DNA of 64,000 nt from an uncultured Pseudomonadales bacterium. Lineage in GTDB: Bacteria > Patescibacteriota > Microgenomatia > UBA1400 > UBA12108. The position numbers and the translations under genes were made by a program. This document shows positions 6,049 through 59,178 of the stretch, piece by piece; the stretch's first letter is position 1; each line of letters starts with the position of its first letter. Under the pieces are notes generated by a model, which was given only the letters and a program-made list of their open reading frames with translations, searched no databases and was not told the origin of the DNA. The DNA is taken from the NCBI GenBank assembly GCA_964507925.1, contig CAZDRB010000001.1, positions 15,072-79,071 on the forward strand. Reading direction: 5' to 3'.

Positions 6049-6440
6049 ATTTCCTCCGGTATAAAAAATTCTGTTTGAATATTGTCAGGGTCTCTAAATG
6101 CGATATAAGGATATTTCCCAGCAAATTTTTCTATTCCTATTGTTGGAACTTTCATTTCTCTTAACCTATGTTCCAACAATTTAAGATCGGTCATAGATTT
6201 TACATGAAAGGCAATATGATCTAGGCCGATGCGTTTTTCGTCAAATCTATCTTTTGCAAGTTCTTGCCATTGCACAAACCAACAGGGAATTCCGACCGAT
6301 AGGAGACTGAAAGAGTTTGTATCATCCATCTTTATTTTGAGCTGAAATAATTTTTCGTAAAACGATCTAGTGACAGAGATATCGCTCACAGTGAGTGTGG
6401 TGTGCGCTATCCCGTCGAAAGTTAAGTTGTCGTCCTGCAT
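6045..6440 (-). CDS. VOC/glyoxalase-bleomycin resistance family protein
   Basis: HTTLTVSDISVTRSFYEKLF ... GLDHIAFHV, typical glyoxalase-fold metal-binding pattern. Start moved to MQDDNLTF (ATG at 6440); the 5' extension in the track lacks similarity. Confidence 0.6.
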   Translation of the reverse strand: MQDDNLTFDGIAHTTLTVSDISVTRSFYEKLFQLKIKMDDTNSFSLLSVGIPCWFVQWQELAKDRFDEKRIGLDHIAFHVKSMTDLKLLEHRLREMKVPTIGIEKFAGKYPYIAFRDPDNIQTEFFIPEEI

Positions 6441-45503: not shown

Positions 45504-46118
45504 ATGAGGATACAGGAGATTTACGAGAAATATCAGATTATGCCCCAGCTCGTGACGCATATGCTCAGGGTTGCGGGAGTTGGAATAAAGATCCTCGAGG
45601 GGTGGAGTGATGAGATAGACCAAGGACTAGTGACCAAAGCACTACTTCTTCATGATATGGGCAATCTAGTCAAGTTTGATTTATCAAAGAATTTGATGCC
45701 GATCGAGAATATTGAGAAGTGGAAAATCTTGCAATCGGAATGGAGAGAAAAGTATGGTAGCGACGCATACCAGGCGACAATGAAGATTATGGACGAGCTA
45801 GGGGAGAAAGAGGTCGCAACAATTCTCGAGGAGGAGCATGCAGGATATTATGCTGGAGATACTGGACTCATCATCAAGCAGTCGTGGCCGGCCAAGATCC
45901 TCGCATACGCTGATATGCGTGTCACGCCTGCCGGAGTGGTGCCACTAGTCGAGCGCATCGCTGACCTTCATTCTAGGTATGGGGGTGAGATTGCTTGGTA
46001 TGGATTTTTGTATGAACTTGAGGTAGATATTAAACGAATGACGATAACTGATCTTGCCGCCATTACCGAAAAAGAAATATTGCCAAGTATTGACAACTTA
46101 TTAAAGTTGGTGATATAG
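45504..46118 (+). CDS. HD-domain phosphohydrolase
   Basis: HMLRVAG ... LLLHDMGN ... EEEHAGYY ... AYADMRV (H..HD..H..H..D). 204 aa. Confidence 0.7.
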   Translation: MRIQEIYEKYQIMPQLVTHMLRVAGVGIKILEGWSDEIDQGLVTKALLLHDMGNLVKFDLSKNLMPIENIEKWKILQSEWREKYGSDAYQATMKIMDELGEKEVATILEEEHAGYYAGDTGLIIKQSWPAKILAYADMRVTPAGVVPLVERIADLHSRYGGEIAWYGFLYELEVDIKRMTITDLAAITEKEILPSIDNLLKLVI

Positions 46119-46129
46119 TTCCAGAAATT

Positions 46130-46372
46130 AATAAAAAGGCGTTACAGTTTGGTTTCCCGCCAAACGAGCTGAGTACGATGAGTACTACGGAAGTCAACCG
46201 TAAAATACGACAAAGCGTGTCGGCAACGGAGCGCAGATAATAAGCAATAGCTTACATACTGACTCCACCGCAAGGTGGTTTTTTTGTAAGCTAACGGAAG
46301 CAAGGTGGTACCACGAGCTAACCTCGTCCTTGTCTATCAGATAATTCTGGTGGGCGAAGACGAGGTTTTTTT
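46130..46372 (+). promoter_or_regulatory. T-box riboswitch leader (predicted tRNA-Pro-responsive) with canonical antiterminator/terminator
   Basis: T-box sequence AAGGUGGUACCACGAG (46302-46317). Helix A1 CAAGG/CCUUG, 7-nt bulge UGGUACC, helix A2 ACGAG/CUCGU. Competing terminator CCUCGUC (46322-28) / GACGAGG (46359-65) plus U7. Upstream hairpin CCACC-GCAA-GGUGG (stem III-like). Operon encodes proline synthesis and ProRS. Confidence 0.65.
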
Positions 46373-46414
46373 ATTAGAGAAACACTAAAAAAATATATAA
46401 AGGAGATAAGTAAT

Positions 46415-47473
46415 ATGAAAATTATGAATGTCGAGTCACTAACCGAGTTAGTGCAGAAACACGGATTTAATAACTACCTACTGGGTCTGATGAAGGCGCT
46501 CAAACACGACTTTGGGAAATGGCAATCATTTACCAAAATGCCCAGACCTGCCATGCATGTTCCAGGCGGCGTATTGGAGCTTATGCCTATTTGTGATAAT
46601 GAAAATTATTACACATTTAAATATGTTAACTGCCATCCTAATAATCCCTTTATAGGTCAGCAGACTGTGGTTGCCACTGGTCAACTATCGAGAATTGATA
46701 CTGGCTATCCTCTGATGTTTAGCGAAATGACTGTGCTCACTGCCCTTCGAACAGCCGCTACTGCATCTCTTGCAACTGACTTAATGGCTCGCAAGAACGC
46801 ACGGGTTTTGGCTCTAATTGGAAATGGTGCTCAAAGCGAATTTCAAGTTAAGGGCCAACAGTTGGTGCGTGATATTAGCGAAGTTCGATTCTTTGATATT
46901 GATTCAAAGGCAATGGATAAATTTGAAAAAAATATGTCCACCTCCAGCCTTAAATTAACGAGATGCAATAGCGCCAAAGAAGCAACTCTGGGAGCGGATA
47001 TTATAACTGTGTGCACTGCCTGTAAGGCAAATGTCGATGTCATTAAGAATGATTGGGTTCAGGAAGGAGTGCATATTAACGCGCTCGGAGGAGACACGAT
47101 CGGCAAAACTGAGTTAGAACTTGGTATTTTGTCTCGAAGTCGCATAGTAGTTGAATACTTTGACCAATCGTACGTTGAGGGAGAAATTCAAAGGCTTGAC
47201 CATGATGAGGCGAAAAACCTAGTTTACGCTGAGATGCACGAGTTAGTTACTGGGCTTAAACGTGGACGCGATAATGATGGTGAAATAACTCTCTTTGACT
47301 CTGTTGGGATTGCGTTAGAAGATTACTCAGCACTAAGGTTTACCTATGATCTGGCAGAGAAATACAATCTGGGTGAGGAACGAAACCTTACGCCAGTGTT
47401 ATTAGATCCTAAGAATCTAATTGCGGTGCTAGATGATAAAACAACATATAATTTAATGGATAAGGAGACATAA
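46415..47473 (+). CDS. Ornithine cyclodeaminase (mu-crystallin family)
   Basis: 352 aa aligning along its length with P. putida OCD: FKYVNCHPNN, LTALRTAATASLA, ALIGNGAQSEFQ, NALGGDTIGKTEL, FDSVGIALEDY. Confidence 0.85.
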   Translation: MKIMNVESLTELVQKHGFNNYLLGLMKALKHDFGKWQSFTKMPRPAMHVPGGVLELMPICDNENYYTFKYVNCHPNNPFIGQQTVVATGQLSRIDTGYPLMFSEMTVLTALRTAATASLATDLMARKNARVLALIGNGAQSEFQVKGQQLVRDISEVRFFDIDSKAMDKFEKNMSTSSLKLTRCNSAKEATLGADIITVCTACKANVDVIKNDWVQEGVHINALGGDTIGKTELELGILSRSRIVVEYFDQSYVEGEIQRLDHDEAKNLVYAEMHELVTGLKRGRDNDGEITLFDSVGIALEDYSALRFTYDLAEKYNLGEERNLTPVLLDPKNLIAVLDDKTTYNLMDKET

Positions 47474-47474
47474 T

Positions 47475-47810
47475 ATGACAATATACGATGATTTTGTAAA
47501 GCTCGATATACGCGTGGGCAAGATAGTGGCGCTCGAGGACTTCCCAGAAGCAAAGAAGCCTGCATATAAACTGAAAATAGATTTTGGCGCTGAGATCGGC
47601 ACTAAAGTATCTAGTGCTCAGCTGGTCAAGCATTACACCAAAGAAGAGCTTGTGGGCAAAATGGTCATGGGAGTGGTTAACTTTCCTCCCCGCCAGATCG
47701 GACCATTCCAGTCAGAAGTACTCACGCTCGGAGTGCCCGACGAGACTCACGAGTGTATACTGGTAGTGCCAGATAAAAATGAAGCAATAATCGGTGGAAA
47801 ATTATTTTAA
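47475..47810 (+). CDS. tRNA-binding domain protein (CsaA/Trbp111-like)
   Basis: DFVKLDIRVGKIVALEDFPEAKKPAYKLKIDFG ... LVVPD is the EMAP/tRNA-binding OB fold. 111 aa, 1 nt after the ocd stop. Confidence 0.75.
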   Translation: MTIYDDFVKLDIRVGKIVALEDFPEAKKPAYKLKIDFGAEIGTKVSSAQLVKHYTKEELVGKMVMGVVNFPPRQIGPFQSEVLTLGVPDETHECILVVPDKNEAIIGGKLF

Positions 47811-47821
47811 AAAGGAGAATT

Positions 47822-49069
47822 ATGAAATACTCGAAAATGTTCGTCAAAACACTTAAGTCTGCTCCGTCTGGAGCAGATACTGCCAATCACCGCTTGCTCG
47901 TGCAGGCAGGATTTGTCAGACAAGTTATGGCTGGGGTATATACCTATCTCCCCTTGGGATTGCGGGTGCTCAACAAAATTGCAAACATTGTGCGTGAGGA
48001 AATGGACAAGATTGGAGGACAAGAGGTACTTATGCCCCTCCTCCACCCTGCTGATCTGTGGAAGCAAACAGGTGGGTGGGATATTGACGTGCTTTTTAAG
48101 ATTAAGAGCCGGACGGATAGGGACTATGCGCTTGCGCAAAGTAACGAAGAAACGGTCACCCCACTTGCCAAAGAGTGGATTCACTCGGCCAAAGATATGC
48201 CTCTCTCGATCTACCATATCAATTGGAAGTTCCGCGACGAATTACGGAGCAAATCAGGAATTTTGCGAGGCCGAGAGTTTTACATGAAAGACATGTATAG
48301 CTTTCATGCAACGCAAGAAGATTTTGACCTCAACTACAAAAAAGTTAAGGAGGCCTACCTCACGATCTTTAAACGACTGGGGCTTGTAGCCAAGGCGACC
48401 GAGGCCTCGGGAGGAGCATTCTCCGAAAAGATTAGTTATGAGTTTGAGGTTTTGACTCCTGCCGGCGAGGCGCCTGTATTGTACTGCGATAAGTGTGATT
48501 ACTGCGTCAATGTAGACGACATTAAGACTTATTCCGAGGGGGATGATTGCCCACTATGTAAAGACGATAAGCTCAAGAGCGCGATGGCCTCGGAGGTCGG
48601 CAATGTGTTTGATCTTGGACAAAAATATTCCAAGGCCTTTGATCTAAGTATTGTGGGTCAAGACGGAAAAAAAGAATATCCGATCATGGGCTGTTATGGA
48701 ATCGGAATTAGTCGGACCATGGGCGTGATCGTCGAAAAGTTTAACGATGAAAAGGGCATTATCTGGCCTGCCTCGGTTGCGCCATATACGGTACACCTAG
48801 TGAGCGTCAATACCAACGACAAGTCAGTGGTTAAGCGAGCTGAGGAAGTATATCAAGCTCTTATCAAGGCAGGTATCGAAGTTTTGTACGACGACCGAGA
48901 GTCAGTTGGCGCGGGGCAGAAGCTAGCGGAAGCGGACATGATCGGATGTCCGATCCGAGCTCTCGTGTCGACCAAATCAGGAGAACAGGTCGAGCTAAAA
49001 TATCGAAATAAAACCGAGTCCCAGCTGGTAAGCTTGGACGAGCTGATAGAGACTGCAAAGACTATTTGA
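47822..49069 (+). CDS. proS: Prolyl-tRNA synthetase (bacterial type lacking the editing insertion)
   Basis: N-terminal region (HRLLVQAGFVRQVMAGVYTYLPLG) and WKFRDELRSKSGILRGREFYMKDMYSFH closely parallel E. coli ProRS motifs 1-2. C-terminal zinc-like CDKCDYC and anticodon-binding domain. 415 aa. Confidence 0.9.
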   Translation: MKYSKMFVKTLKSAPSGADTANHRLLVQAGFVRQVMAGVYTYLPLGLRVLNKIANIVREEMDKIGGQEVLMPLLHPADLWKQTGGWDIDVLFKIKSRTDRDYALAQSNEETVTPLAKEWIHSAKDMPLSIYHINWKFRDELRSKSGILRGREFYMKDMYSFHATQEDFDLNYKKVKEAYLTIFKRLGLVAKATEASGGAFSEKISYEFEVLTPAGEAPVLYCDKCDYCVNVDDIKTYSEGDDCPLCKDDKLKSAMASEVGNVFDLGQKYSKAFDLSIVGQDGKKEYPIMGCYGIGISRTMGVIVEKFNDEKGIIWPASVAPYTVHLVSVNTNDKSVVKRAEEVYQALIKAGIEVLYDDRESVGAGQKLAEADMIGCPIRALVSTKSGEQVELKYRNKTESQLVSLDELIETAKTI

Positions 49070-58892: not shown

Positions 58893-59178
58893 GTGCCTTG
58901 GGTAGGCTAGATGATCGCTCCGACGTAAAGTCGGAGAGGAAAGTCCAGACAGCAGTGTGCAGGGTGTCTCGACGTAAAGTCGGGAACGGGTAACCGCTAG
59001 TTAGAGCAACAGAGACTACGACTCACCCGCAAGGGAAGAGAGTGAAAAGGGCAATCCTCCCCGCTGCAACCGACGAATAGGCCGACAAAGACTGACGCAC
59101 ACCAGAGGCCTGAAGCTTGCGGGCATAGATAAATGATCATCTGCAAAACAGAATCTGGCTTATGCCTACCCAAGGCGC
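58893..59178 (+). ncRNA. rnpB: RNase P RNA (bacterial type, reduced ~285 nt)
   Basis: P1 closes with a perfect 13-bp helix: GCCTTGGGTAGGC (58895-) / GCCTACCCAAGGC (59164-59176). P4 strands GAGGAAAGTCCAGAC (cf. GAGGAAAGUCCGGGC) and ACAGAATCTGGCTTATG (cf. ACAGAACCCGGCUUA). Confidence 0.8.

Follow-up and report, generated by a model that had tools for sequence, protein, structure and literature searches.

A putative proline-specific T-box riboswitch with a reduced Stem I precedes an ornithine cyclodeaminase and prolyl-tRNA synthetase operon in a Patescibacteria genome

The stretch of DNA analysed here, called the window throughout, comprises 64,000 nucleotides of contig CAZDRB010000001.1 (assembly GCA_964507925.1), from an uncultured bacterium placed in the Patescibacteriota. 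In front of an operon encoding ornithine cyclodeaminase (OCD), a CsaA-type tRNA-binding protein and prolyl-tRNA synthetase (ProRS, gene proS), the window carries a leader that very probably acts as a proline-specific T-box riboswitch, controlling the three genes by transcription attenuation with a reduced tRNA-recognition half; we put the probability of this reading at roughly 85%. Proline-specific T-box control of the operon had been proposed in an earlier, sequence-only reading of the window, and it is supported by 30 non-identical homologous leaders, all of which precede proline genes. The predicted elements of the leader and operon are listed below in window coordinates.

46090 to 46119, plus strand: promoter-like site, TTGACA, 18 nt, TATAGT, with an upstream TG; 11 of 12 consensus matches.
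46138 to 46170, plus strand: Stem I domain, with a basal helix GGC (46138-46140) / GCU (46168-46170) and a 6-bp helix (46147-46152 / 46160-46165), from the alignment and RNAalifold.
46153 to 46159, plus strand: apical specifier loop UUUCCCG, with CCC at 46156-46158 followed by the purine G46159.
46172 to 46186, plus strand: mini Stem II, a 5-bp hairpin AGUAC/GUACU with pentaloop GAUGA, aligned by Rfam to Stem II.
46187 to 46211, plus strand: Stem IIA/B pseudoknot, IIA being ACGG (46187-46190) / CCGU (46198-46201) and IIB being GUC (46193-46195) / GAC (46209-46211).
46215 to 46234, plus strand: extra stem ("IIC"), GCGUGUCG-GCAA-CGGAGCGC, with conserved internal U.G / G.A / U.G.
46248 to 46293, plus strand: Stem III, with an outer helix UAGCUUAC / GUAAGCUA and a distal hairpin CCACC-GCAA-GGUGG (46265-46278), then U7 (46279-46285).
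46301 to 46332, plus strand: antiterminator, with helix A1 CAAGG (46301-46305) / CCUUG (46328-46332), bulge UGGUACC (46306-46312) and helix A2 ACGAG (46313-46317) / CUCGU (46323-46327).
46320 to 46372, plus strand: intrinsic terminator of 21 bp, core CCUCGUC (46322-46328) / GACGAGG (46359-46365), then U7 (46366-46372).
46400 to 47473, plus strand: Shine-Dalgarno (SD) sequence AAGGAG (46400-46405) and OCD gene, with its ATG at 46415.
47475 to 47810, plus strand: gene for a CsaA/Trbp111-type tRNA-binding protein, by profile match.
47822 to 49069, plus strand: gene for a bacterial-type ProRS of 415 aa, by profile match.

Relatives of the window ProRS in the genome collection came almost entirely from metagenome-assembled genomes (MAGs) of the Candidate Phyla Radiation (CPR)/Patescibacteria, the closest (~80% identity) being of Woesebacteria/Microgenomates type. 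Seven of the nine closest loci (L001-L007; related loci are given L numbers) showed the order HD-domain gene, leader, optional gene, CsaA, ProRS, as far as their contigs extend; the other two either had no leader (L058) or were truncated at a contig end (L009). A short leader of ~150 nt lies directly before CsaA-proS in six of these seven, and in L005 a long leader like that of the window is followed by a gene with a sub-threshold match to the dimerisation domain of pyrroline-5-carboxylate (P5C) reductase and then by CsaA-proS. Metagenome contigs were scanned with one pattern keyed on Stem I and Stem II sequence, and 29 of the 30 stretches returned were such leaders. Once duplicates had been removed, 30 different leaders from CPR genomes and metagenomes remained, and each of them shows the CCC loop, the UGGNACC bulge, both helices A1 and A2, and a terminator that ends in a U-run. 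Three more leaders, found through OCD homologues and independently of the pattern, stand before OCD-CsaA-ProRS operons in L110-L112, and a covariance model returned a further one before proS of a Saccharibacteria MAG (L033). Among 79 ProRS loci taken from genomes, which were nearly all of the CPR, 70 showed no such leader in motif or model searches; the leader is therefore lineage-restricted and not general to CPR proS.

Downstream of the CCC-loop leaders there was in every case a proline-synthesis gene or proS. The first type is a short glutamate-5-kinase-like (proB-like) amino-acid kinase, followed by two uncharacterised open reading frames (ORFs) of ~398 and ~250 aa; the others are P5C reductase (proC), a class-III aminotransferase, ProRS alone, CsaA-ProRS, OCD-CsaA-ProRS, and a protein with ArgZ-like C-terminal domains, which we take to be of the ornithine-to-proline cyclase type. 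Short-form leaders accompany CsaA-proS, and long-form leaders mostly stand before proline-biosynthesis genes, one of them directly before proS (L093). In the window, L005 and L081, a long-form leader is followed by one proline-related gene and then by CsaA-proS, with no second leader between, an arrangement which suggests that the short leader gave way to a module of leader and gene at these three loci.

The discriminator half of the leader had been described from the sequence as an antiterminator, CAAGG[UGGUACC]ACGAG...CUCGU CCUUG, and a mutually exclusive terminator, CCUCGUC/GACGAGG followed by U7. Both were present. In an alignment of 24 discriminators, 97.1% of the antiterminator cells were paired versus 28-50% when the strands were slid, and compensatory changes were seen at 7 of the 10 pairs. 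The terminator reuses the 3' strands of A2 and A1, so that the two structures have positions 46320-46332 in common. The computed folding energy was -31.2 kcal/mol for the terminator hairpin (46320-46367) versus -8.5 to -10.1 kcal/mol for the antiterminator; a terminator far more stable than the antiterminator is the usual asymmetry of T-boxes. The leader folded well beyond shuffled sequence (z = -5.4), and each of the 30 unique relatives had an equivalent terminator with its U-run. On the minus strand of L108, the CCC-loop leader that precedes proC has UGGCACC and not UGGUACC, which implies a G discriminator or a tolerated mismatch.

In the 5' domain, Stem I was paired in 100% of the cells of the long-form alignment, and its helix UUUGG/CCAAA is exchanged in relatives for GGGG/CCCU, CUUGG/CCAAG or UUUAG/CUAAA. 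Taken over 17 long-form leaders, 99.1% of the 5'-domain cells were paired versus 28-44% with the partners slid, four pairs had compensatory changes, and RNAalifold, run unguided, recovered the same five 5'-domain helices. Pairing and covariation in these alignments thus support the predicted Stem I, mini Stem II, Stem IIA and both antiterminator helices. Between the two Stem I helices lies an asymmetric internal loop at the usual position of the T-box kink-turn (K-turn), which reads C.A / A.G in the window and A.A / A.A in most long-form relatives; a canonical GA/GA K-turn occurs in the short-form relatives, L033 and L110. A distal platform (AG bulge and distal loop, the interdigitated T-loops) was absent from Stem I, which consists of 6 bp and a 7-nt loop, and the long-form alignment leaves no space for one.

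The apical loop UUUCCCG was invariant in 17 of 17 aligned long-form leaders, and RNAalifold adds a U46153.G46159 pair that would make it a pentaloop instead of a 7-nt loop. In T-boxes the specifier codon sits at the 3' side of its loop and is followed by a purine. Two codons had been put forward as specifier candidates, CCC at 46156-46158 and CCG at 46198-46200. The first stands, in a conserved apical loop before proline genes: because the CCC loop is kept in relatives whose downstream genes all serve proline, the predicted specifier is CCC at 46156-46158. The CCG was rejected as belonging to the invariant 3' strand of Stem IIA, within the F-box CCGUAA. Members found without the pattern search keep CCC in the loops UAUCCCG, UACCCAG, UUCCCAG and UUCCCG; in L110 and L112 the specifier frame reads CCA, likewise a proline codon.

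Between Stem I and Stem III the leader holds three further elements. Mini Stem II covaries (C-G to A-U, plus G.U variants), L002 and L006 carrying GUGC/GCAC. Its GAUGA pentaloop is not general, since L033 has GAGGA and the Stem II regions of L110 and L112 are larger. In these two leaders, which precede OCD-CsaA-ProRS, the larger region (L110 2760-2850, L112 230-290) has a common loop motif, AAUACAUAAGC, that is absent from the window leader. Stem IIA (ACGG/CCGU, with the F-box-like CCGUAA) is invariant and is aligned by the Rfam model. For IIB, at least five complementary combinations occur at equivalent places: GUC:GAC, GUCA:UGAC, GGA:UCC, GGAU:AUCC, CUGC:GCAG and CUCC:GGAG, the last read by eye in L033, where the longest match by script was GACUC:GAGUC. 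The helix is 2-5 bp long, with only 2 bp in a few members, and the comparison lends modest support to a IIB pseudoknot helix. The extra stem at 46215-46234, in which two to three pairs show compensatory changes, is missing from the Rfam consensus and occurs also in long-Stem-I T-boxes of CPR contigs; judging from these alignments, it is a lineage-specific insertion. A minimum-free-energy hairpin CGACA/UGUCG (46208-46222) was rejected, as relatives lack CGACA and covariation favours GCGUGUCG/CGGAGCGC. In L095 the extra stem is without its 3' half and Stem III without its 5' half, which may reflect a deletion variant or an assembly artefact.

Stem III, read earlier as a stem-III-like hairpin preceding the terminator, was located at 46248-46293. 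Its purine-rich flanks are AUAAGCA (5') and AACGGAAG (3') in the window and, by eye, AAGCG or AAGAG before and GAAAG or AAAGU after it in relatives. A terminator scan listed the inner hairpin with its U7 (46265-46285) as terminator-like. A Stem III hairpin with U5-8 was found by an automated scan in 8 of 24 long-form proline leaders, a number that becomes 14 with six L089-type leaders added by eye, and a hairpin with a U-run also occurs in the long-Stem-I leaders of L083 and L097. In the window, L080, L084, L089, L098, L101, L108 and the second leaders of L083 and L097, 13-28 nt lie between the end of the hairpin with its U5-8 and the T-box sequence. The window hairpin has GGUGGU in its 3' arm, a repeat of the GGUGGU in the T-box (46304-46309).

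The default Rfam scan of the window, at gathering thresholds, reported no T-box. With E-value thresholds, RF00230 matched 46133-46334 at 34.8 bits (gathering score 93), with an E-value of 3e-6 for the leader alone and of 4.7e-4 for the 64-kb window. This was the fourth-best Rfam match in the window, behind RNase P and two tRNAs, and the only regulatory-RNA family matched; the match is beyond chance. The alignment is near-perfect over the discriminator half and covers 84 Stem I model positions with only 18 nt, and the score is low because Stem I is ultrashort and has no distal platform. None of the proline leaders in 15 related loci reached the gathering score, which the long-Stem-I T-box of L083 did. 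Only the discriminator half of the leader is canonical; Stem I is ultrashort, with an apical specifier and no distal platform. The sequence-only reading had named a sub-threshold Infernal score, or a Stem I without specifier loop and distal platform, as grounds for giving up the T-box. The score is indeed sub-threshold and the platform absent, so that both grounds apply if taken literally, and yet the T-box reading holds on the comparative evidence; these grounds were too strict.

Several points nevertheless weigh against a functional T-box here. The RF00230 score lies far under the gathering score, and the K-turn position of the window is non-canonical (C.A / A.G, not G.A / A.G). An S-turn (GAA/AGUA) was sought in Stem II and the extra stem and none was recognised, Stem II lacking a suitable helical context; the window leader thus has neither S-turn nor distal platform, although the literature holds that one or the other is needed for tRNA capture (PMC10482949) and that transcriptional T-boxes generally need the platform (PMC7583486). 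The hairpin with U7 at 46265-46285 could end transcription before it reaches the T-box sequence. The search pattern forced the loop and GAUGAG, which inflates their conservation in the metagenomic subset; since members found through ProRS or OCD also have CCC, that codon is general. Lastly, ARAGORN found no tRNA-Pro in the window or in loci L001-L109; the GGG anticodon and the A73 discriminator that UGGU implies are assumed here from what is general for bacterial tRNA-Pro.

Following the established T-box mechanism, the GGG anticodon of tRNA-Pro would pair with CCC. When the tRNA is uncharged, its 3' ACCA would pair with UGGU of the bulge and stabilise the antiterminator, and transcription would then continue into ocd and the genes for the tRNA-binding protein and ProRS. 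With charged tRNA this pairing could not occur, and the terminator would form. Low prolyl-tRNA charging would in this way give more proline synthesis from ornithine and more ProRS. More speculatively, an all-G.C CCC:GGG duplex might make an elbow-binding platform and an S-turn dispensable, and the Stem III hairpin with its U7 might make transcription pause long enough for the tRNA to bind.

In the Class I proline T-boxes known from Firmicutes (for example Bacillus proBA/proI and clostridial proS), uncharged tRNA-Pro induces proline synthesis or ProRS and, as proposed here, does so by transcription antitermination, with a UGGU bulge for an A73 tRNA. Their Stem I is long and carries its specifier loop internally, besides an AG bulge and a distal loop, and their scores pass the Rfam threshold; the window leader, in contrast, has no distal elements and scores 34.8 bits. 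Another reduced transcriptional T-box with a G/C-rich codon-anticodon duplex is the glycine T-box glyQS (Class II), in which the loss of Stem II has been explained by the strong GGC:GCC duplex (PMC7583486). The CCC:GGG duplex offers a suggestive parallel to that argument, although glyQS has retained the platform of a long Stem I and is entirely without Stem II and IIA/B, whereas the window leader has lost the platform and keeps a mini Stem II and the pseudoknot.

Among known types, the nearest is the actinobacterial Class III T-box, as in ileS of Mycobacterium tuberculosis, M. smegmatis and Nocardia farcinica, with its "ultrashort" Stem I. The window leader shares with it a short Stem I with an apical specifier and no elbow-binding double T-loop platform, a junction at the K-turn position, a Stem II followed by a IIA/B pseudoknot with F-box-like CCGU(A), and a standard discriminator with a UGGN bulge (PMC7583486, PMC10482949). 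Class III specifier loops are of 5-6 nt, and tRNA binding by T-boxes is augmented by the platform, the S-turn or both (PMC10482949). T-boxes acting on transcription generally depend on the platform of a long Stem I, and in Actinobacteria an ultrashort Stem I accompanies translational control (PMC7583486). There are also differences. The window leader has an intrinsic terminator with U7 where Class III has an SD sequestrator, and its Stem II is a 5-bp mini hairpin, whereas that of Class III is elongated, with an AGUA/GAA S-turn that latches the codon-anticodon duplex. Its specifier is CCC (Pro) rather than AUC (Ile), it carries the extra stem at 46215-46234 and a terminator-like Stem III, and its host belongs to the CPR/Patescibacteria and not to the Actinobacteria. 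From its predicted structure, the leader is best filed as a T-box variant that has a Class III-like Stem I but is transcriptional, proline-specific, without S-turn, and from the CPR. In the limited collection of papers searched, we found none that links T-boxes with Patescibacteria, the Candidate Phyla Radiation or Saccharibacteria.

The 5' domains of the proline leaders were used to build a covariance model which, run on the 64-kb window, returned two sites, the proline leader itself and 5014-4907 on the minus strand (31.7 bits, E = 1.2e-5). The second site lies in the following context.

5017 to 4875, minus strand: second ultrashort-Stem-I T-box-like leader, a covariance-model match that Rfam does not list.
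4874 to 4239, minus strand: histidine-phosphatase-family gene.
4210 to 2963, minus strand: serS, encoding seryl-tRNA synthetase.

This leader reads AAGGCGUCUGA-GUUUAG-CUUUCCA-CUAAAC-AAGCU, followed by a mini Stem II, a hairpin ACGGG-UAAG-CCCGU and CAAGG-UGGCACC. Its apical loop CUUUCCA gives UCC followed by A, a serine codon, and the bulge reads UGGCACC, in which UGGC would match a tRNA with a G discriminator, as in bacterial tRNA-Ser. The leader ends in a hairpin ACCUCCUA/UAGGAGGU with U7, the AUG coming directly after, and this hairpin is both an anti-SD/SD pair and terminator-like. No 3' strand of A1 was found in the serine leader for its antiterminator.

Long-Stem-I T-boxes also occur on the CPR contigs. 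One at L083 5222-5516 (minus strand) reaches 100 bits against RF00230, and the start of the next gene resembles chorismate mutase; one at L103 ~8790-8550 (minus strand) has UAC and precedes tyrS; and one at L097 ~6100-6340 lies on a contig that ends before any downstream gene. L083 and L097 carry ultrashort proline leaders as well. These long-Stem-I T-boxes retain the K-turn, an internal specifier loop, an AGAGA bulge and a GGUUGGUGAAAGC distal loop, whereas the proline leader is without the distal elements. Those of L083 and L097 share with the proline leaders the mini Stem II, the pseudoknot, the extra stem (GUGUGUCG...CGGAGCAC), a Stem III hairpin with U-run and the discriminator; that of L103 shares the mini Stem II and the discriminator. 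A tRNA-like sequence after the L097 T-box was rejected as a tRNA by analogy with L103, where the same conserved sequence belongs to the long spacer before tyrS, and ARAGORN calls no tRNA in either.

Tentatively, the CPR proline leaders and the serine leader of the window might together represent a further architectural class of T-box, transcriptional and with neither platform nor S-turn, a proposal that we regard as possible rather than probable. In such a class the tRNA would be captured through a G/C-rich apical codon-anticodon duplex, perhaps aided by the GAUGA pentaloop and the pseudoknot, and the kinetic handicap would be offset by a programmed pause or an early-termination checkpoint at the Stem III hairpin and U-tract.

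The likeness to Class III raises the alternative that the leader is translational, as in actinobacterial ileS, the tRNA freeing the ribosome-binding site and the hairpin with its U-run being incidental. The window leader indeed has a Stem I built as in Class III, whose members are mostly translational (PMC10482949). Many relatives have their start codon directly behind the U-run and, 7-9 nt ahead of that codon, GAGG or AAGGAGGAGG within the 3' arm of the terminator (L005, L080, L081, L087, L090, L095, L096, L112); the hairpin of the serine leader, as an anti-SD/SD pair, points the same way. In the window, however, the SD sequence AAGGAG starts 28 nt past the U-run. As it lies outside both alternative structures, control in the window is predicted to be transcriptional. 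Moreover, with its 21 bp and U7 the hairpin has the textbook form of an intrinsic terminator, its U-run is kept in every relative, and we consider the translational alternative improbable. In those relatives with an SD-like GAGG in the 3' arm, the same hairpin may block both transcription and ribosome binding, which is not so in the window.

A second alternative is a decayed, non-functional T-box that has lost Stem I and brings about constitutive partial termination only. The sub-threshold Rfam score, the missing platform, the degenerate K-turn of the window and the mid-leader deletion of L095 would all fit such a remnant. Against it, the reduced 5' domain is conserved with compensatory changes in 30 leaders and in several gene contexts, and the CCC loop always occurs together with proline genes. 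In addition, other genes on the same contigs still have T-boxes with a long Stem I, so that the shortening is confined to certain leaders and is no sign of general decay. Decay thus appears quite improbable.

It is very improbable that a long Stem I simply escaped notice and that the leader is a canonical Class I T-box with another specifier. Such a reading could draw on the CCG at 46198-46200 proposed in the sequence-only reading and on the Rfam alignment, which runs over the full model length (1-219), but 84 Stem I model positions are matched by only 18 nt, CCG lies in the invariant 3' strand of Stem IIA, and only 21 nt separate the -10 box (ending at 46119) from the basal helix (46138-46140), so that an overlooked long Stem I is already refuted by distances in the sequence. 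A leader-peptide (ribosome-mediated) or protein-dependent attenuator that merely resembles a T-box is hardly credible: a terminator and alternative hairpins are found here as in classical attenuators, but a UGGNACC bulge between two covarying helices is a T-box signature, and leader-peptide control was rejected, as the short leader ORF (ATG at 46179, ~20 codons) has, by eye, no proline codon.

The leader is therefore read here as a transcriptional, proline-specific T-box, and the operon behind it is as had been described from the sequence, all three genes being confirmed by profile matches above cut-off. OCD (46415-47473) matches NF005762 with 421.7 bits (cut-off 350), the CsaA-type protein matches NF007495 with 156.5 bits (cut-off 117) and ProRS matches TIGR00409 with 450.7 bits (cut-off 306.7). 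The promoter-like site at 46090-46119 overlaps the 3' end of the HD-domain gene, and related leaders have a TATAAT-like box at an equal distance before AAAGCG; from its position, transcription probably starts just 3' of this site.

The window ProRS has no INS editing domain, and it matches models of 559-568 aa in two stretches, the first pairing query residues 1-235 with model positions 1-237. The ProRS proteins of the lineage (window, L001-L007, L058, L110-L112) are all of 415-427 aa and without the INS editing domain, and at the same loci a CsaA/Trbp111-type gene of 110-111 aa always lies immediately 5' of the ProRS gene. This constant arrangement hints that the small CsaA-type protein might work with ProRS, for example by binding tRNA in trans. 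Elsewhere in the window, the RNase P RNA (58899-59176) has only 278 nt against a model of 367 positions, with several helices deleted, and is barely above its Rfam threshold (104.5 versus 100 bits). Many MAG records with CPR-type ProRS and the synteny of the window (L001, L002, L004, L007, L014 and others) are titled "uncultured Pseudomonadales" or "Gammaproteobacteria"; as the closest named relatives are Woesebacteria/Microgenomates, these titles look wrong.

A reduced T-box type with a tiny Stem I has so far been described mainly for translational switches of Actinobacteria. A conserved family without platform or S-turn, yet with a strong terminator, would test the current rule that transcriptional T-boxes catch tRNA fast enough only by means of the long Stem I platform, whereas T-boxes lacking it rely on an S-turn Stem II and control translation (PMC7583486, PMC10482949), and with a recognition domain of ~100 nt it would define a very small natural tRNA sensor. 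As the Rfam T-box model misses such leaders at its present threshold, tRNA-sensing regulation would be under-annotated in CPR bacteria. For the hosts, the arrangement would mean that organisms with small genomes keep a one-step route from ornithine to proline and couple this route, along with ProRS and a tRNA-binding protein, to how far tRNA-Pro is charged.

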